Source of the DNA: Oligoflexia bacterium
GTDB lineage: Bacteria > Bdellovibrionota > UBA1018
Reading direction: 5' to 3'
NCBI GenBank assembly: GCA_043732485.1
Contig: JAYTHP010000173.1
Coordinates: forward strand, 1 to 10,807
Length of the DNA stretch: 10,807 bases
Part shown: piece after piece, positions 2,895 to 10,080 of the stretch
Layout: every line of letters begins with the position of its first letter
Numbering within the stretch: the first letter of the stretch is position 1
Notes under the pieces: model-generated
What the model was told of the DNA's origin: nothing
What the model saw: only the letters and a program-made list of their open reading frames with translations
Databases searched by the model: none
Position numbers and translations under genes: made by a program

Positions 2895-2923
2895 TCGATA
2901 AAATGTGCTTCTAGCTTTAAAAT
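2895..2923 (+). promoter_or_regulatory. Putative sigma70-type promoter for the 2964-5739 operon
   Basis: TCGATA (2895-2900), 17-bp spacer, TAAAAT (2918-2923), in the AT-rich divergent intergenic region, 40 nt before ATG 2964. Confidence 0.45.
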
Positions 2924-2963
2924 AACTAGCTGAAAGTTAAAAATTTGCTAACATCAGGGCTAT

Positions 2964-3371
2964 ATGAAGAAAAAAACCTCCGCCGCCGTCGCCGCTGCCA
3001 CCAAAAAGAAGAAGCCCGCCACCAAGCAAGCTGCCCCAAAACCCAAAAAAACCGTGAAAGCGCCTATCAAAAAACTTTTTGCCAGGGAAATCAGGCTCAA
3101 CTTGATTGACGACCTGTTGGACGAGATTTTTCATCTTTGTTGCCATGAGGTGGCCGAAGTAGGAGTGGCGCGCGATGCGATGTCACAAATTTTAAGCGCT
3201 GCTCTCACCGTCAGCAATCAACTGAAGCGCGAGTCCCAAAAGAAAGTCGCGCCTCACGCCCTCCACGTCAGCTCGCACCTCGCTTTGCACTGTGCGTGCA
3301 AGCAAGCTGCCCATCAGGAGCTGATTGTTCCGCTCCCTGAAGACGCTTGCTCCTCCGACGACGAGCATTAA
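2964..3371 (+). CDS. Small protein with histone-like Lys/Ala/Pro-rich N-terminal tail and His/Cys-rich helical domain (possible histone fold)
   Basis: 135 aa; 14 Lys in the first 37 residues; then amphipathic helices. Stop is 10 nt before the next ATG. The CDS itself is well supported, the fold call is tentative. Confidence 0.75.
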   Translation: MKKKTSAAVAAATKKKKPATKQAAPKPKKTVKAPIKKLFAREIRLNLIDDLLDEIFHLCCHEVAEVGVARDAMSQILSAALTVSNQLKRESQKKVAPHALHVSSHLALHCACKQAAHQELIVPLPEDACSSDDEH

Positions 3372-3381
3372 GCGTAAAACG

Positions 3382-5739
3382 ATGAAAGTCCTGATCATTG
3401 GAGCAGGAGCGGTAGGAGCGGTCTACGCCCACTTTTTGCAAAAAGGTGGAGCGGAAGTAGCCTTCTGGGTGAAACCGCATCAAGTCGACACCCTTTCGCA
3501 CGGGCTTACTTTGAAAAACCTGCGCCAGTTGCAGCGCCCAGTGGAGCGCCTGCAGCAGACCACCGCACTCTACAGTCAGCTCGCCGAGGTGCAGGGACAG
3601 GCGTGGGACTTCCTGGTCCTGGCGATTGCTTTTTCTGACCTCAAGACGGCTGCAGACTTGCGGGAGCTTTTTCTAGCCCTCACGCCTCGTGCCACCCCGG
3701 TGAGCTTATGCCTTGGGCTAGAAGACCGGGAGTCTTTGTTCCCGGTAAGCGACGCTTGGATCCACGGGATGGTGCCTTTTGTCAGCTTTAAGAGCCAAGA
3801 CAACGACGGCGACACTCCCTCTCCTCAAACCCTGCAAGCCGCAAAGGCTTCCGCTTGTTTTCATTTTTGGATCCCCCCCTTAGCGCAGGCTTTTTTTAGC
3901 ATGGCAGGCCTCCCCCACTCCGCGCAGCAAAGGGCGGCAAAAGCGTGGGTCCACTGCCTGCGCCAGGGTGGCTTTCCTGCAAGGCTCACCGCACAAGACG
4001 TCAGACACAAGGTGGTGATCCCCAACGCGGTGTTACTAGCGCTGGTGCTGACGCTTGAGCACGAGGGATGGCAACTCAAACCCGCGCTCACAGGCTTGCC
4101 GCTTGCGCGCATGGCACAAGCGGCGCGAGAAATTCTGCTGCTCACAGCCCGCAAAAGTCAAATGAAGCACTTTTGGCCTGGATTGCTGCAGCCTGTGCTC
4201 CTTAAGGGGCTCTTGCGCTTACTGTGTAGACCCTTGCTGGGTTTTCACTGGCTGGGGTTTGATTTTGAGGGGTTTTTAGTCAGCCATTTCACCAAAATTC
4301 GCAAGCAAACCCATCAAGAACTGGCAAGCTTGCTGCACTACGGCAAAACCCAAGGCATCGCAACCCCTGCCTTGCAAGGATTTTACCAGCCACTCCGGCC
4401 AGCCCGCCTCCTTGCCATGTGGGGCGAGCCAACCCACCCCACCGTGGAATTGCAAGAAGACGGCCAAGTCTTGCAACTCCACGTCAGTGCGAGGCGGACA
4501 ACAACCCTCCCGCAGCCAGGTGACTGGGTGGCTTTTTCCCTGAACCGCGCAGGCCAAGTGCAGGAGCTTGCGCAGCTAGCAAGGTGCGGTGCAGCCTGGA
4601 ACCCTGCAGATCCGGTCTTTTATGCGAGAAAAACAGCGACGGCGCACTTGAGTCGTTACGAGCGCCTCACTTCACGCGCCCGGCTGCTGCAATCCTTGCG
4701 CCAAACCCTGGAGCAAGACGGTTTCTTGGAAATAGAGCCTAAGACTTTAATCACCCATCCGGTGGTAGATCAGGCGATTGAATCTTTAGTCTGCGGAAGT
4801 CAGTTTTTACTCACCTCCTCTGAGTTTCAAATCAAACGCCTGATGATTGCAGGGTTTCCCCGGGTGTTTAGCTTGGCGAAGAATTTTCGTGCGGAAGGAG
4901 AAGATGCCTGGCACACGCAAGAGTTCACCATGCTGGAGTGGGCCAGGAGCTGGAGTAGCTTAGCGGACATTGAGCGCGACGCCCAGCGGCTGATCCAAGA
5001 CGCTTTTTTGAAGCTCTACCCCCTGCCTCCTGCCGGTTCACGTTCGTCTCCCGTCCCTTTCAGCTACCGCGGTCAGAGGCTGGATCTGATGGCAGCCGAT
5101 TGGCCGCGCCTGACGGTCAGTGAAAGTTTTGAAAAATACCTGAACTTTCCACCCTTGTCTGACTTTGAGATCCCCACGCTGCTTGCAGCTTGCAGCCAAG
5201 CAGGTTTGAACGTTCCTGAGCAGTTGATCCGCAGCACGCCGCAAGCGCCTATTGCATCCTTAAACGCACCCTTAAACGCACCCTTAAACGCACCCCTAGA
5301 CCCCCTCACCGACCAGCGCGGACTGCTCGTGTCCTACCTGCTCGATCAAGTCCAGCCTCACTTAGGCTTCCCACAGCCCGTGTTTCTCACCGAATGGCCG
5401 GCTTTTTTAACCTCATCTGCCCCCACCCTGAAAAACCGCCCGCTCTTAGCCTCCCGCAGCGAGTGTTACCTGGCAGGCGTTGAGATTGCCGATGGTTTCC
5501 CGTTCTTAACGGATCCGCACCAGCAAAAAGAGCTCTGGTTGCATGAAAACCAGCTGCGGCTTGCCCACCAGCAAGCCTGCGTGACCTTAGATCAACGCTA
5601 CCTGGAGGATCTCGCCCAAGGCTTACCCGAAGGTGCCGGCATGGCTTTAGGGGTCGATCGCCTGTTGATGATTTTGACGGATAGCGACGACATTGCCAAC
5701 GTCCAAAGTTTTTCCTCCCTCAACAGCGGTGAAATCTAA
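3382..5739 (+). CDS. Fusion protein: ketopantoate reductase (PanE/ApbA)-like oxidoreductase + OB-like linker + EpmA/GenX-like (LysRS paralogue) class II ligase
   Basis: N-terminus MKVLIIGAGAVGAVYAHFL (Rossmann GxGxxG, PanE type). The C-terminal ~360 aa carry EpmA-type motifs: RARLLQSLR..GFLEIE (motif 1), LLTSSEFQIKRL, KNFRAE..H.QEFTMLEW (motif 2), PVFLTEWP, GVEIADGF, GLPEGAGMALGVDRLLM (motif 3). One uninterrupted frame; ATG 3382 follows the upstream stop. Confidence 0.88.
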   Translation: MKVLIIGAGAVGAVYAHFLQKGGAEVAFWVKPHQVDTLSHGLTLKNLRQLQRPVERLQQTTALYSQLAEVQGQAWDFLVLAIAFSDLKTAADLRELFLALTPRATPVSLCLGLEDRESLFPVSDAWIHGMVPFVSFKSQDNDGDTPSPQTLQAAKASACFHFWIPPLAQAFFSMAGLPHSAQQRAAKAWVHCLRQGGFPARLTAQDVRHKVVIPNAVLLALVLTLEHEGWQLKPALTGLPLARMAQAAREILLLTARKSQMKHFWPGLLQPVLLKGLLRLLCRPLLGFHWLGFDFEGFLVSHFTKIRKQTHQELASLLHYGKTQGIATPALQGFYQPLRPARLLAMWGEPTHPTVELQEDGQVLQLHVSARRTTTLPQPGDWVAFSLNRAGQVQELAQLARCGAAWNPADPVFYARKTATAHLSRYERLTSRARLLQSLRQTLEQDGFLEIEPKTLITHPVVDQAIESLVCGSQFLLTSSEFQIKRLMIAGFPRVFSLAKNFRAEGEDAWHTQEFTMLEWARSWSSLADIERDAQRLIQDAFLKLYPLPPAGSRSSPVPFSYRGQRLDLMAADWPRLTVSESFEKYLNFPPLSDFEIPTLLAACSQAGLNVPEQLIRSTPQAPIASLNAPLNAPLNAPLDPLTDQRGLLVSYLLDQVQPHLGFPQPVFLTEWPAFLTSSAPTLKNRPLLASRSECYLAGVEIADGFPFLTDPHQQKELWLHENQLRLAHQQACVTLDQRYLEDLAQGLPEGAGMALGVDRLLMILTDSDDIANVQSFSSLNSGEI
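5258..5293 (+). repeat. In-frame 12-bp tandem repeat (CCTTAAACGCAC)x3 encoding LNAP x3
   Basis: Three perfect copies read directly, with a degenerate fourth (CCCTAGACCCCC) following. Confidence 0.95.
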
Positions 5740-6635
5740 AAGCGAGCGCTGCGTGCTTGCACGCCAGACGCAAACACCCGGTTCACCTTACCCTGCAGCA
5801 GGTGCTGAGCGCGTAGCTTTAGGCCAAAGCGCCCTGCAATCCGGTCGCCATCCTCAGAGACACTGCAGCAAACCAGGTTGACTCCAACTCTACCGCCACG
5901 CCTAGCCGCCTTCACCTTCTCTTGCTCCGCTTGGACTTGCGCTAGTTGCGCTGCAAAGTGGCGCATGAAGGCGCAAGAGAGGGCCGTTTTCCTCAAGGGG
6001 CCGACTAAGCTGTAATTAAACAGGTAGAGATGCAAATCGCGCCCCGGCTCCTTCCAAGCCTGCAGCTCCGGGCTATGGGGCCGCTGTTCCATGGGCGGCG
6101 GTAACGGCTGATGGTCGTGGGCGTGGTGATGACGCTGACGACGACGAGCTGAGGCGTCATCCCTCACCAGCCCGTCAAAGGTTTGTGCACTGATCGGAAA
6201 CCAGCCTGAATAACCCACCGGCATCCAGGCCCGGTGCTCGTTCCACGGTTCACGTATGCGGGCAAACCAGACGCTAAAGCCTTGCGGAAAATGCTGCAAC
6301 GCCCACAAGAGGCGAGCAAAGCTCACTTGATTCGAGGTCTCAGGGTAACTGGCGAGATCTGCCCAGTAACAAGCGCTGACCCACTTGCGAAACGCTTCAG
6401 ACGCACGCCCTCCTAACCCCGCGCCCGCACCCACTTGCTCTGTGAAACGCGCCCCTTCCCAGACGAAAAACGGACCCTCAACGGGCAGGCGATCTGGCAA
6501 CTCCCTCAAGCGCAACAAATTTGCCAAAAACTCTGTCCCCCGCGCTTCTTCGTGCCAGTCGGGTATCGCCTGTTGAATGGCCCGGAGACTTTCTAGCTCC
6601 CCCCACCCTTGAACCTCAAACCCCTCAAGACTCAT
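5736..6635 (-). CDS. Hypothetical protein with GNAT-like acyltransferase fold
   Basis: Open frame 5736..6773; start uncertain (ATG 6635, ATG 6716 or GTG 6773). Ordered GNAT-like elements: PVGYSGWFPI, LYLFNYSLVGPLRKTALSCAFMRHF (degenerate motif A), LVCCSVSEDGDRIAGRFGLK (motif B-like). Stop overlaps the stop of the fusion gene (5736-5739). Confidence 0.6.
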   Translation of the reverse strand: MSLEGFEVQGWGELESLRAIQQAIPDWHEEARGTEFLANLLRLRELPDRLPVEGPFFVWEGARFTEQVGAGAGLGGRASEAFRKWVSACYWADLASYPETSNQVSFARLLWALQHFPQGFSVWFARIREPWNEHRAWMPVGYSGWFPISAQTFDGLVRDDASARRRQRHHHAHDHQPLPPPMEQRPHSPELQAWKEPGRDLHLYLFNYSLVGPLRKTALSCAFMRHFAAQLAQVQAEQEKVKAARRGGRVGVNLVCCSVSEDGDRIAGRFGLKLRAQHLLQGKVNRVFASGVQARSARF

Positions 6636-6788
6636 CTTGCACCACGACTCAACCTTCCTCTCTCCTTGACTCTTTTGGACTCTCCTGGCCTCTCTCTTCT
6701 GGAGCGCGCAAATCATCAGGCACTCTCTCGTGCCAGGCGCGCTCAGCTCGATTGCCGAGTAAAACCCTGCCACGCAAGGCCCCGGAGT

Positions 6789-7163
6789 TTAATTACCGAG
6801 CTTTTTCAGCTCAGTTGCATGAATTTTTGCCTGATTCTCAAACCGACGCGCCTGAAAATACTGCCCTTGCCCTCTTGCCTCATGAGCCGCAGCCTTATTC
6901 TCGACGTAGGCGTCGGTGTGGAGCTGTGCTTTTTTCGAGTCCTGCTCACTCCATGCTTCTTGACTGCTTGACTGCCCGTTGGACAGGCGGCCGCTGGGTT
7001 GGGTTTCTGGCGCCACCGTCCTCGTCGCGCTTGCTTTGGCACCAAACCCGAACCTAGCGTGAGCCTCAGGCGGTAGCGCACCTGCCAGGAAAAAGAAAAC
7101 TACAGGCAAAGCGAACCATTGAACGGGGCGTTGCACGACGGGTAAGCTGGATGACATTAACAT
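6789..7163 (-). CDS. Small secreted hypothetical protein (124 aa)
   Basis: Strong SD AAGGAG 6 nt before ATG 7163; signal peptide WFALPVVFFFLAGALPPEAHA|RFG with A-x-A cleavage site; polar mature part. Confidence 0.75.
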   Translation of the reverse strand: MLMSSSLPVVQRPVQWFALPVVFFFLAGALPPEAHARFGFGAKASATRTVAPETQPSGRLSNGQSSSQEAWSEQDSKKAQLHTDAYVENKAAAHEARGQGQYFQARRFENQAKIHATELKKLGN

Positions 7164-7175
7164 AAAAAACTCCTT
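7164..7175 (-). promoter_or_regulatory. Shine-Dalgarno site of the small secreted protein
   Basis: Minus strand reads AAAAAAGGAGTTTTTT-ATG. Confidence 0.7.
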
Positions 7176-7412
7176 TTTTGTGGGATCCAAAATACACTTC
7201 TTACCCAACGCGCCCTTGTGGTGTTGGGATAAGGGGGAGCAACCACTGCTTTTCTTGCAAAAAAGGCAAAAAAAACATCTCTCTCTCTAGGCTCTACTGC
7301 TGCTGCTGCCGTTCTTTCATCTTACCGCACCTTGCTCCTTCCTGCCTAGCGGAGCTGTGTCGCGAAGGGCGTGTCAAAACCACCCCCCCCTTGCAGCCGA
7401 GTGCCACTCCCC

Positions 7413-7435
7413 ACGGCCCCCGGGCGCCGTTTTTT
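7413..7435 (+). terminator. Terminator-like hairpin with U-tract in the region upstream of the HDAC gene
   Basis: ACGGC (7413-7417) pairs with GCCGT (7426-7430), followed by TTTTT. The stem is short. Confidence 0.3.
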
Positions 7436-7615
7436 GCTTGAAAAAACTGGCCTGACCATTTACCGTCCTTTCATCCAGGGAGGCAAGCGCCTGATGAGCC
7501 CCGCAGGACTGTGCACCACCCTCACCACAGCTCCCACCCAAACAAACCTTTGAGGGTGGCAAGCCTGCACGCTCAAAGCAACTGATTCAATAATGCTACC
7601 GACAAACAAATCATC

Positions 7616-8821
7616 ATGCATGACCTAGCCCATGACCTAGCCGCAAACGCTCTCACCCCACCCCCTCGTTTCCAGATTCTTTCTCACCCTCAGTTATTGG
7701 AGCACGCAACCGCATACTCATCACCCTTAGGCTCCAGCTCAAGTTATCCTGAAAGCCCCGAGCGACTGCAAAGCGTTTTGCAGTCGCTGCAGCAAGGCCC
7801 GGCAAGTCGCGCTCTCGATGTGACTTGCACGCGGGTGGCGCAGTGGAGTGAACTTGCCTGGACCCATACGGCTGATTATCTGGCAAAAATTCAGCCCCTC
7901 GAAGGTCTTACAGGTGAATTTTTACCAGAAACCTTGTTCTCCCCGCACTCAGTGGAGGCCGCACGCCGTGCCGTCGGCCTAGGCCTTGAGCTGCTCGATC
8001 GCTGGCTGAGCCAACAGCTCGAGGGCGGGTTTGCCCTAGTGCGTCCCCCAGGCCACCACGCGACTGCCACTGCAGGCGGGGGGTATTGTATTTTTAACAC
8101 GCTTGGGGTGGTGGCCCACGCTGCCTTGCGGCAGGGCGTGCGGCGTATTTTAGTCTTAGACTGGGACGTCCACCATGGCAACGGCACCCAGTCGCTCTTT
8201 TACGCCGATCCCCGCGTGCTATTTATCGATTGGCATCAGGAAAACTTGTTTCCTGAGAACTCAGGGCGTCTCGAAGAGCAAGGTGTTGGCGAGGGACGAG
8301 GCTTTACGATCAACTTTCCCATGCCACATTCCTGCCAGGACAACGATTACCTTTTTCTCTTCGATCAAGGAGTCGCACCCCAAGCCCGTGAGTTTGATCC
8401 GGAACTCATTTTGGTGTCTTGTGGGCTGGATGCTCATGAGGCGGATCCTTTAGGATCCATGCGCCTCACCACCCAAGGCTTCACGCAGTTGTCTGGTCGC
8501 TTGCGCAAACTTCAGCGCCAACTCCCACTTAAAAAAGCCTGCCAAAACCCACAGCAACCAGGCGTGCTGTTTTTTCTCGAAGGCGGCTATGAGGTGTCGG
8601 ACTTAGCCAAAAACGTTGCAGCGGTGATTGCTCCCTTTTTAACGCAGCCAACCCCTGCAGCCTCCGGTCACGCCCCGGACCACCTCCTCACCGCCAGCGA
8701 CTTGCAGGCGGCGGCTGACAATGACGACGAGAACCACAACGCAAAGGCCATCGACCCCCAGCAAGTGCGAGAGGAGGTCAAGCTCCTGCTCAAGCGCGTG
8801 CAAGCGCAAAGAGCGTCATGA
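7616..8821 (+). CDS. Zn-dependent histone deacetylase family protein (AcuC/AphA, class II-like)
   Basis: Motifs YPESPERL, RPPGHHA, GYCIFN, LDWDVHHGNGTQ, GEGRGFTINFP, SCGLDAHEADPLG, LEGGY. Catalytic His pair, Zn ligands (D, H, D) and Tyr are all present. Confidence 0.95.
   Translation: MHDLAHDLAANALTPPPRFQILSHPQLLEHATAYSSPLGSSSSYPESPERLQSVLQSLQQGPASRALDVTCTRVAQWSELAWTHTADYLAKIQPLEGLTGEFLPETLFSPHSVEAARRAVGLGLELLDRWLSQQLEGGFALVRPPGHHATATAGGGYCIFNTLGVVAHAALRQGVRRILVLDWDVHHGNGTQSLFYADPRVLFIDWHQENLFPENSGRLEEQGVGEGRGFTINFPMPHSCQDNDYLFLFDQGVAPQAREFDPELILVSCGLDAHEADPLGSMRLTTQGFTQLSGRLRKLQRQLPLKKACQNPQQPGVLFFLEGGYEVSDLAKNVAAVIAPFLTQPTPAASGHAPDHLLTASDLQAAADNDDENHNAKAIDPQQVREEVKLLLKRVQAQRAS
7619..7642 (+). 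repeat. 12-bp tandem duplication (CATGACCTAGCC)x2 encoding HDLA x2
   Basis: Two perfect copies directly after the HDAC start codon. Confidence 0.9.
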
Positions 8822-8847
8822 GCGAGAGACGAGCGAGCGGCAAGGAC

Positions 8848-10080
8848 TCAGCACGTTGTCCCACCGCCACCTGCGCCAGGCGAAGGAGATTGCAAAGGCG
8901 GGCGTGAGGGCCGACGTAGTGAAGGAGTCGAGATGAGCATCGCACACAGCAACACGCCCCAAGACTTCACCGAGAGTCGTTGCAACAATGCACCCGTCGT
9001 GCTGCCTAGGGTCTTTTGCGTGAACGCGGCAATCATCAGGATCCCGAGCACGCTAAGCGCGATCAATGTCCTTTTTTCCGCTTTGTGGAGCGTCGGGTGA
9101 GAAGGATCATCATGCTCCTGACAGGCGTTGACACAACCGTGCAACGTCAGGGTTGCCAGCGGAAAGGCCAAGACAAAACTATGAAAGCCTGCCAGCGGTT
9201 GCACCGTGGCACTGAGCGCAAGCCAGCCAGCCCAGCGCTGATCTGCGCTTAAATGTTGCGAGCGGAGGCGCCAAAACACGGCAAGCACCAAGCTCAGCGC
9301 TAGGGTGAGCGCTAGCATCAAGCCCGTCTGCTGTTCATCCAGTTCGAAAAGGCGAAAGAGCATCGACACAAGCCCTTGCGCTTGACTCCCCTTCACGGAG
9401 ATTTTCACCACCCCTGCCGCATCGATGCCAGGACCTGTGGCAGCCCGGTAGGATGCCATTAAATCCGAAAAACTTTGATGATGGGCCAGGAAAGCCGGAA
9501 TCGAAAGCCCGGTCAAGAGCACGAGCAGGCAAGCCACCCTACGCACGTCCCCTCGTTTCCACTGAAAGCCCAATAACGGAAAAAGCGTTACCAGTTTGAT
9601 GCTAAGTGCGTAGCTGAGCAGTAAAGTTGCGCAGTTTCGTAGCTGATGTTGGTAGACTGGTAAAAGCGCTAACGCCAGTGCCGTCAGTGGGAGTGAGACT
9701 TGGCCATCAAAAGCGTGCACCGTCCAGATCCCACTCCAAGTGACAAGCGATAAGCTCAGTAAACCGAGTGAGACCCGTTTTTTTAGCCACAACGCCACAA
9801 AGACCAGGGACATTGCCTCAACCCCACCCCAAATCAGTTTTGCTGCCGCAAGCGGTAAGCACCCGAGCGGTAAAAACAAGGGCAAGATCCACGGCGGGTA
9901 TTTAAAGGTCATCATGCCGTCGCGCGCCACCGAGTAAATCGGTGCGCCTTCGGTGACAAAAAGGTGCGCCGTGTTCCAATAAACCGTAAAATCTGGTGCA
10001 TTTTTTGCGGTGTTGCTTGCTAATGCCACCGCCAAAAGGATCAGCAGCAGCCAAAAACCTCCGTTGCTCAGCCTGATCAT
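8848..10080 (-). CDS. Glycosyltransferase family 87 (DUF2029), GT-C membrane glycosyltransferase
   Basis: 410-aa polytopic membrane protein with DFTVYW after TM1, FKYPPW, GQVS and SIKL motifs in the order typical of GT87. Confidence 0.85.
   Translation of the reverse strand: MIRLSNGGFWLLLILLAVALASNTAKNAPDFTVYWNTAHLFVTEGAPIYSVARDGMMTFKYPPWILPLFLPLGCLPLAAAKLIWGGVEAMSLVFVALWLKKRVSLGLLSLSLVTWSGIWTVHAFDGQVSLPLTALALALLPVYQHQLRNCATLLLSYALSIKLVTLFPLLGFQWKRGDVRRVACLLVLLTGLSIPAFLAHHQSFSDLMASYRAATGPGIDAAGVVKISVKGSQAQGLVSMLFRLFELDEQQTGLMLALTLALSLVLAVFWRLRSQHLSADQRWAGWLALSATVQPLAGFHSFVLAFPLATLTLHGCVNACQEHDDPSHPTLHKAEKRTLIALSVLGILMIAAFTQKTLGSTTGALLQRLSVKSWGVLLCAMLISTPSLRRPSRPPLQSPSPGAGGGGTTC

Follow-up and report, generated by a model that had tools for sequence, protein, structure and literature searches.

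Comparison of gene order across genome and metagenome contigs identifies an EpmA-like ligase, a GNAT-fold protein, and an HDAC-family hydrolase as a real, conserved, and functionally linked module, and we propose that this three-gene module stands in place of EpmA and acts on elongation factor P (EF-P). The genes were studied in a stretch of 10,807 nucleotides (nt) from an Oligoflexia bacterium (contig JAYTHP010000173.1 of assembly GCA_043732485.1; hereafter "the window" means this whole stretch), which belongs to a 2.58-Mb metagenome-assembled genome (MAG) with a completeness of 89%. Ribosomes that stall on polyproline are rescued by the universal factors EF-P and eIF5A, whose essential loop residue is modified in ways that differ between lineages. 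We put the probability of the whole explanation at about one half.

The initial annotation of the window had already grouped these genes with a small Lys-tailed open reading frame (ORF) and had suggested that they write and erase a non-standard acyl mark on that Lys-rich tail. The four genes, the tail with its 14 Lys, the spacing of 10 nt between the tailed ORF and the next gene, the PanE-like/EpmA-like fusion encoded by that gene, and the ORF abutting it were all found as described. The idea of a write-and-erase system is partly supported, as it survives in outline through the linkage of ligase, GNAT-fold protein, and HDAC; the Lys-tail target does not, and the comparative evidence points to EF-P, a different and better supported target.

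A conserved trio of ligase, GNAT-fold, and HDAC genes

Homologues of the 345-residue GNAT-fold ORF were found in only two of 40 relatives (G009 and G024), each beside an EpmA-like gene, and in G009 the HDAC gene lies between the two. An alignment of the GNAT-fold family scanned against genome and metagenome contigs gave 17 + 22 loci, 38 of them distinct. The ligase gene was present in 32 of the 38 distinct loci, lying convergent and just downstream of the GNAT-fold gene in 28 and within 400 nt of it in 23, and the HDAC gene was present in 24, directly upstream of the GNAT-fold gene and on the same strand in 22; eight of the 14 HDAC-less loci end within 1.1 kb upstream of the GNAT-fold gene. 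Carriers are labeled as Oligoflexia/Bdellovibrionales, Parachlamydiales/Chlamydiales, Sorangium, Chondromyces, Myxococcaceae, Verrucomicrobia, and one Methanobacteriota MAG, and the adjacency of the trio holds over five or more phylum labels (among them Bdellovibrionota, Chlamydiota, and Myxococcota). Cultured carriers include Chondromyces apiculatus DSM 436 and Sorangium strains. In one protein of 560 residues (P0025), the HDAC (residues 22–312) and the GNAT-fold domain (residues 315–559) are naturally fused. Within the order of the window, the GNAT-fold gene is present in 7 of 116 genomes, and the trio genes share a phyletic pattern among relatives; the only relatives, out of 40, with close orthologues of the HDAC (48–49% identity), for example, are the other two module genomes, G009 and G024. 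Because this arrangement is conserved across loci and phyla, the co-location of the trio reflects more than chance. When gene neighborhoods are compared across genomes and MAGs, it is thus the trio that co-occurs, and neither the Lys-tailed ORF nor the fusion to a PanE-like domain goes with it.

The HDAC gene of the window (7616–8821, + strand) encodes a Zn-dependent amidohydrolase nearest to class IIb, HDAC6-like enzymes. It matches PF00850 with 262 bits (cut-off 27.9; E 7e-78), and four stretches that align with both catalytic domains of HDAC6 are intact (PPGHHA at residue 144, DWDVHHGNGTQ at 182, GLDAHEADPLG at 270, and LEGGY at 321), as the initial annotation had stated for this gene; we take them to be the His-His, Asp-His-Asp zinc-site, and catalytic Tyr positions. 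Among solved structures, HDAC6 ranked first (9k91_A, E 1e-96 over two domains), followed by HDAH (1zz0_A, E 1e-49), HDAC15, HDAC10 (E 5e-46), a lysine deacylase, and APAH (E 3e-35). The sequence of the HDAC alone gives no verdict on whether its substrate is a protein acyl-lysine or a small amide. The orthologue in G024 lies on a separate contig (G024:C37:1607-2846) and contains in-frame TGA stops, which may mark a pseudogene, a sequencing error, or a recoding event.

The 345-residue ORF (5736–6773, − strand) is convergent with the fusion and overlaps its end by 4 nt. An AlphaFold2 model built from an alignment of 17 homologues (mean pLDDT 73.7) matched NAA60, NAT10, and arylalkylamine (AANAT-like)/polyamine N-acetyltransferase chains with a Foldseek probability of 1.00. 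The top chains by VIA-align were 7uci_A (Z 13.2; root-mean-square deviation (rmsd) 2.8 over 164 aligned residues), 2ree_A (Z 13.0), and 6mfc_B (Z 12.2), which cover model residues ~97–339, the core of the protein, and the 50 matches listed were GNAT-type throughout. By its predicted structure, the ORF is a GNAT-fold protein, so that the earlier guess of a GNAT-like gene holds at the level of fold. No Pfam or NCBIfam match at E<=0.01 was obtained for the window copy, for any of 13 intact homologues, or for the two pieces of a stop-interrupted copy (L043). The window copy has an N-terminal extension and a His-rich insert, and the family is small, with 191 cluster representatives at E<=1e-3 and 157 at E<=1e-10 in a profile search of 1.84 billion representatives.

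Two loci hold a lone GNAT-fold gene with neither ligase nor HDAC (L043 7782–8528 and L039 833–1489). Mobility and decay are suggested for the L043 copy by its in-frame stop and by a MobA/VirD2 relaxase gene no more than 4 kb away; the L039 copy lies near subtilase and AAA ATPase genes.

The module ligase, EpmA, and EF-P

In the window, the ligase is the C-terminal catalytic domain (residues 426–785; 4657–5739, + strand) of the 785-residue fusion encoded at 3382–5739 (+). Residues 427–779 match the class II tRNA synthetase family PF00152 (E 5e-37), the best NCBIfam match is the model TIGR00462 of EpmA (EF-P--(R)-beta-lysine ligase; also NF006828), and the best PDB sequence matches are EpmA/PoxA structures (3g1z, 3a5z, and 3a5y; E 2e-32 to 9e-31), ahead of LysRS. 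Class II motifs 2 and 3 (FRxE...H..EFTMLEW and GxGxDR) are intact and invariant across the clade of module ligases. This clade was recovered in a tree of 36 rows from a quick search, which included 27 GNAT-linked ligases, five canonical EpmAs, and two LysRS sequences but neither L062, which duplicates L038, nor tblastn pieces shorter than 300 residues: all 27 GNAT-linked ligases group together (SH-aLRT 100, stem 1.33), separate from canonical EpmA and LysRS, with the window ligase on a long branch (1.04). In all 27, the residue equivalent to A298 of E. coli EpmA is Ala (A755 in the window), where the two LysRS rows have Gly. In the available part of a preprint (10.64898/2026.07.07.736966), A298 is described as the gate by which EpmA chooses (R)-beta-lysine over alpha-lysine.

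A structure model of fusion residues 341–785 (pLDDT 88) superposed on EpmA over model residues 67–442 only (3a5z_C; Z 36.6, rmsd 2.2, 313 aligned) and on LysRS over residues 1–443, aligned to chain positions 71–520 (6ns0_A; Z 36.7, rmsd 2.9, 399 aligned). Since LysRS superposes from within its OB domain onward, fusion residues 341 to ~405 are a truncated remnant of the LysRS anticodon-binding barrel; with a linker, this five-strand beta-barrel makes up residues 341–425 (4402–4656, +). The remnant is common to the long forms of the clade (404–445 residues), and an OB domain is missing from the short forms (~330 residues), which are those of the chlamydial loci and of L038. N-terminal extensions of 80–105 residues are also seen in relatives whose canonical EpmA genes score over the cut-off (L011 1108–2388 and L018 1207–2490), and the OB remnant may therefore be ancestral in the order and not special to the module clade. 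A further feature of the window ligase is a low-complexity insert of ~20 residues, which contains the repeat NAPLNAPLNAPL (NAPL x3; 5263–5298), forms a low-pLDDT segment of the model (280–299), and is absent from all other clade members.

One complete HDAC-GNAT-ligase module is found on a contig labeled as a Methanobacteriota archaeon MAG (Ga0207042_1029; L038/L062). Its ligase groups in the tree with an Oligoflexia ligase and the metagenome copy L063, and the contig may be mis-binned or the module may have been transferred.

In the genomes sampled, the presence of the module ligase was found to be mutually exclusive with that of canonical EpmA. Canonical EpmA (TIGR00462 over cut-off) was detected in none of the 17 distinct module genomes, in which the module ligase is the only EpmA-like gene besides LysRS, AspRS, and AsnRS. 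Among relatives without the module, 32 of 38 encode canonical EpmA over the cut-off and three more encode one just under it, the canonical enzymes of relatives scoring 288–344 bits. The same pattern was seen in an independent lineage, in 81 chlamydial genomes sampled from the order of G041, where the three GNAT-bearing genomes hold only the module ligase (249–255 bits) and 54 of the 78 others hold canonical EpmA. Pooled over both samples, 86 of 116 module-less neighbors encode the canonical enzyme.

Other parts of the EF-P modification pathway appear to be retained. EpmB/KamA-like genes were detected in the window genome, in five of five module genomes tested, and in 37 of 41 relatives. EF-P has a PGKG loop in every genome compared, and its first 60 residues are near-identical among relatives whichever ligase is present. 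In one chlamydial locus (L034), efp (6219–6797) lies immediately upstream of the HDAC gene, which is followed by the GNAT-fold gene with the ligase gene convergent. The either/or relation with canonical EpmA, the retention of EpmB-like genes and PGKG-type EF-P, and the efp-HDAC-GNAT order of L034 together make EF-P the likely target, and it is more likely, on these comparative grounds, that the trio acts on EF-P than on the Lys-tailed neighbor protein.

Structure prediction is weakly in favor of the same pairing. The predicted complex of the window ligase with its own EF-P scored 0.40, the best of three controls scored 0.00, and the runs agreed in at least 75% of contacts with a partner pLDDT of at least 79. 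Of the solved complexes, 116 of 157 reached the mark that this complex passed, as did 2 of 215 mismatched pairs; with scores of 0.60 or less, just 18 of the 157 solved complexes and both mismatches did so. Moreover, the pass may be memory, as a like complex (3A5Z) has been solved.

Two observations concern further genes of the EF-P type. The only EpmB/KamA-like gene of the window genome (G000:C141; L019 1339–2715) scores 225 bits, below the cut-off, and is followed 170 nt downstream by a 328-residue ORF (L019 2888–3874) that, by eye, we take to resemble deoxyhypusine-synthase (DHS)-like proteins; if it is DHS-like, it would be a second modification enzyme of the EF-P/eIF5A type beside the aminomutase. 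The chlamydial module genomes G043 and G041 (L050 and L051) each encode a second EF-P paralogue, with 163 and 156 bits, below the efp cut-off.

Mechanistically, we propose that the ligase takes the place of canonical EpmA and would adenylate a lysine-type beta-amino acid and transfer it to the EF-P loop lysine, K32 in VSPGKGRAF. With less assurance, the GNAT-fold protein may add, and the HDAC remove, an acyl group on the appended residue or on its free precursor, and this acyl step would serve either as an on/off switch or within a protect-ligate-deprotect route. In other words, an acylated beta-lysine may be made, ligated, and deacylated, or the acylation may be reversible; we infer these options from the GNAT-fold and HDAC partners and from the available part of the same preprint (10.64898/2026.07.07.736966), in which an EpmA-derived enzyme takes N-epsilon-acetyl- and succinyl-lysine.

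Several observations weigh against the EF-P proposal, and those on the ligase and its substrate come first. All module ligases score below the EpmA cut-off of 286.9 bits (window, 199–200 bits; others, 218–267 bits), the tree did not resolve the branching order of the module clade, EpmA, and LysRS or recover a sister relation to EpmA, and the window ligase departs from the other clade members at several otherwise conserved positions. Two pocket positions that are invariant in the seven EpmA/LysRS rows are replaced in the clade: the position of E. coli EpmA Y118 is Ala in 25 and Gly in two of the 27 members, and that of E251 is Phe in 18, Ser in seven, Ala in one, and Gly in one, with Pro at the preceding residue in 25 members. 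Because of these replacements, the substrate may not be beta-lysine. The LysRS equivalents of the two residues presumably hold the side-chain amine of lysine, and if so, the pocket would now be larger and less acidic. With scores of 137–244 bits (39 of 43 matches at 202–244) against a cut-off of 369, the order's EpmB-like genes may encode ordinary lysine aminomutases; chlamydial copies come nearest (332–345 bits), still below it. Three module-less relatives (G011, G020, and G031) have neither type of ligase, so EF-P may work without either, and within 38 loci, efp is adjacent in only one and an EpmB-like gene in none.

The remaining points concern the partners. Six loci have no HDAC gene despite room for one, the ligase gene of G077 is on another contig, and the HDAC gene of the window is a separate divergent unit, inverted relative to the usual HDAC>GNAT order. 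GNATs bind the pyrophosphate of coenzyme A (CoA) with a Q/R-x-x-G-x-G/A loop after strand 4. In the family consensus, judged by eye without structure superposition, LYLFNYSV is followed by PSLKKTxLS (xPxLxKxxLS), with no conserved Gly. Since the glycines of the CoA loop are missing, the use of acyl-CoA is not assured and the protein may be non-catalytic. Finally, action on EF-P leaves the role of the fused PanE-like domain unexplained.

Alternative explanations and other features of the locus

A more specific form of the EF-P proposal would involve a mark not seen before on this factor. The GNAT-fold protein would acylate the epsilon-amine of lysine or beta-lysine, the ligase would attach the neutral acyl-beta-lysine to Lys32, and the HDAC would strip the acyl group, always or conditionally, which would yield a switchable EF-P; the fused PanE-like domain would add a redox step. 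We regard this full scheme as tentative and rather unlikely in all its details.

The main rival is a small-molecule pathway that follows the logic of mycothiol. The HDAC would free an amine (of an amino sugar or a polyamine), the ligase would add an amino acid to it, and the GNAT-fold protein would acylate the product, with the PanE-like domain reducing a 2-oxo acid that feeds the pathway. Several features fit such a pathway: relatives of the HDAC include the polyamine deacetylases HDAC10 and APAH, the altered pocket residues permit a new substrate, and the module has sugar-nucleotide enzymes and a GT87 glycosyltransferase as neighbors in L029, L031, and the window. In the mycothiol system, however, MshB is a member of the LmbE family and not an HDAC, and MshC is a class I enzyme, whereas the module combines a class II ligase with an HDAC-family hydrolase, and no glycosyltransferase is conserved with it. 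The triad itself, a deacetylase, an aminoacyl-tRNA synthetase (aaRS) paralogue, and a GNAT, has a parallel in the mycothiol/bacillithiol pathways as discussed in the available part of PMC2922099, where the same three kinds of enzyme (MshB deacetylase, MshC CysRS-like ligase, and MshD GNAT) serve one pathway. Nevertheless, the sugar genes are not conserved in chlamydial or myxobacterial loci, and neither a transporter nor an additional biosynthetic gene is found repeatedly in the loci. Such a pathway would also leave unexplained both the absence of EpmA, common in neighbors, from 17 of 17 module genomes and the efp-HDAC-GNAT order of L034. Overall, we consider it unlikely.

A role in tRNA-dependent transfer, in which the ligase charges a tRNA with the help of its OB remnant, the GNAT-fold protein acts like Fem, MprF, or L/F-transferase, and the HDAC reverses or trims the product, is much less probable. 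It would accommodate the superposition of the OB remnant on the LysRS anticodon-binding domain and a GNAT-fold family without the usual CoA-motif glycines. There are also precedents for a LysRS-like paralogue beside or fused to a GNAT-fold protein (LysX/MprF, VlmL/VlmA, and Fem; available part of PMC2922099), and EpmA A298G retains residual tRNA charging according to the part of the preprint that was available (10.64898/2026.07.07.736966). Those precedents, though, pair a full aaRS that has an anticodon-binding domain with a GNAT of the MprF/Fem type. Here the barrel is truncated, and the short ligases, which have no tRNA-binding domain, keep their GNAT and HDAC partners all the same. Single-domain N-acetyltransferases and GNAT-like decarboxylases make up the structural matches listed for the GNAT-fold model; no Fem or MprF chain is among them, which does not exclude such a function.

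Equally improbable is the reading of the initial annotation, in which the Lys-rich tail of the 135-residue protein (2964–3371, +) receives a non-standard acyl mark from the fusion and the GNAT and is cleared of it by the HDAC. This ORF ends 10 nt upstream of the ATG of the fusion (counted from its TAA) and is probably co-transcribed with it, a promoter-like site (a consensus match only) lies ahead of it at 2895–2923, and it looks coding, with a codon-usage score of 0.22 inside the range of the other window genes (0.13–0.30). Its Lys/Ala/Pro-rich N-terminal tail, with 14 Lys within the first 37 residues, is of rare composition (at least 14 Lys per 37 residues in only 5 of 9033 genome ORFs of at least 60 residues), and EpmA-type ligases do acylate a protein lysine. 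Against these points, the 135-residue protein is an orphan. Its globular part has no homologue besides itself among 5.8 billion proteins, a search of 40 relatives with the ORF gave a single, chance-level match (E 0.0026), and searches gave no Pfam or NCBIfam match and no usable look-alike in the Protein Atlas. A Lys-tailed ORF was found in none of the 38 other loci. The ORF is thus, by its distribution, outside the conserved module, which is older and far more widespread. Its former description as a tailed histone-like protein is not supported either, as the resemblance to histone-like or H1-like proteins is one of tail composition alone, and no homology to a nucleoid-protein family was found.

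Chance co-location of unrelated genes, which the initial annotation had feared and which the distribution of the window genes over at least two or three transcription units with an inverted HDAC gene might suggest, has almost no likelihood and is contradicted for the trio by the adjacency conserved over phyla, the natural fusion P0025, and the shared phyletic pattern; it stands only for the 135-residue ORF, a 139-residue ORF, and the GT87 gene.

The N-terminal half of the fusion (residues 1–340; 3382–4401, +) is a PanE/ApbA-like NAD(P)-binding oxidoreductase domain with a GAGAVG Rossmann motif. PF02558 (ApbA) matches residues 3–137 with 32.9 bits (cut-off 22.2), the match to TIGR00745 is below its cut-off (34.5 vs 141 bits), the nearest PDB match is 3hwr_A (E 4e-4), and the ApbA_C domain gave no Pfam match in the fusion at E<=0.01. 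Of the 115 other genomes of the order, 20 encode stand-alone homologues of this half (27–36% identity over residues 1–339), and none of these is fused. The "reductase-ligase writer" of the initial annotation is therefore present as a fusion, and among the 116 genomes of the order it is limited to this one. A search of 5.8 billion proteins with the whole fusion returned no fused relative and no self-match. By exact look-up in the protein collection, the 135-residue ORF and the HDAC were present, and fusion forms of 785 and 804 residues and the 345-residue ORF were absent, perhaps because other start codons had been called.

The assembly was compared with contigs of sequencing runs, among which no RNA run was listed as holding this sequence. 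The 6 kb at 2900–8900 match a 20,175-nt Logan contig without differences; the contig derives from two runs of one study (depth 18–20), which may be the source of the assembly. A run of a second study contains identical pieces of both fusion halves, and since no contig of it bridges 4067–4571, the fusion joint rests on one data set assembled twice. In glacier-metagenome runs of that second study (X3 and X4), fragments differ at 0–3 positions from the sediment-derived contig, and the organism or a close strain is thus present in both settings.

The remaining features of the window lie outside the trio. The 139-residue ORF (6789–7208, −) ends 15 nt upstream of the GNAT-fold ORF and is of uncertain reality: it has a hydrophobic N-terminal stretch, is otherwise of low complexity, scores lowest among the scored candidate genes (0.134), and has no Pfam or NCBIfam match. 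Neither it, the PanE half, the 135-residue ORF, the GT87 gene, nor the EpmB-like and DHS-like genes of the window genome had a tblastn match in 39 loci. Terminator-like sites in the window (11 found, 9.9 expected) were not in excess over chance. A 513-residue ORF without a Pfam or NCBIfam match adjoins a divergent AI-2E family transporter gene (80–1621 and 1817–2848). The GT87 glycosyltransferase gene of the window (8848–10080) has a counterpart near the module of a Bdellovibrionales genome (L031 10880–12130), beside UDP-sugar dehydrogenase and epimerase genes, and its presence in both genomes may reflect local synteny or a sugar-pathway link.

Relation to known systems and significance

The closest known system is EpmA/EpmB/EpmC, which carries out beta-lysylation of EF-P Lys34 in E. 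coli and Salmonella (3A5Z and 3G1Z). The module ligase shares its class II LysRS-like fold and gate Ala and likewise co-occurs with EpmB-like genes and a PGKG-type EF-P. It differs from E. coli EpmA in forming a separate clade below the cut-off, in the replacement of Y118 and E251, and in its obligate-looking GNAT-fold and HDAC partners, neither of which is found in the neighborhood of E. coli epmA. Furthermore, the long module ligases keep the OB remnant, and that of the window is fused to a PanE-like domain.

The eukaryotic EF-P homologue offers a second parallel. According to the available parts of two papers (PMC8705083 and PMC3831114), hypusine on eIF5A is acetylated by SSAT1, a GNAT, which inactivates the factor, and HDAC6/SIRT deacetylate eIF5A. 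The modified loop of an EF-P homologue thus has a writer of the GNAT type and an eraser of the class IIb HDAC type there, and the HDAC of the window is nearest to HDAC6 among solved structures. The eIF5A system differs in being eukaryotic, in its unclustered genes, and in its hypusine residue, and acetylation of EF-P by the module would be an analogy. A third parallel is AblA/AblB, a lysine 2,3-aminomutase and a beta-lysine acetyltransferase of the GNAT type (available part of PMC2821294). Such a pair combines a source of beta-lysine with an acetylating GNAT and would supply N-epsilon-acetyl-beta-lysine, which the altered ligase pocket might take; unlike AblB, the GNAT-fold protein of the module has no NCBIfam match at E<=0.01 and is linked to a ligase and not to an aminomutase.

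Full-text literature searches turned up no account of a cluster of EpmA-like, GNAT, and HDAC genes, and none is given in the available parts of papers on EF-P modification and aaRS paralogues (PMC12856214, PMC2821294, PMC11388002, and PMC2922099), supplements aside, though relevant material may be present in Additional file 1 of PMC2821294 and in the synteny figures of PMC11388002. What appears to be new here is that a ligase system of the EF-P type has two partners not reported before and a remodeled pocket; class II EF-P ligases as a kind are already known. By the count given in the available part of PMC11388002, 51% of bacterial EF-Ps are "of unknown modification". A clade that displaces EpmA in Chlamydiota, Myxococcota, and Bdellovibrionota and comes always with a GNAT-fold protein and usually with an HDAC suggests either a new chemical form of EF-P modification or a bacterial acetylation switch like that of eIF5A. 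A bacterial HDAC homologue thereby gains a testable role, as does a GNAT-fold family (191 cluster representatives) without a Pfam or NCBIfam match, and the cultured carriers make the question directly accessible to mass spectrometry.

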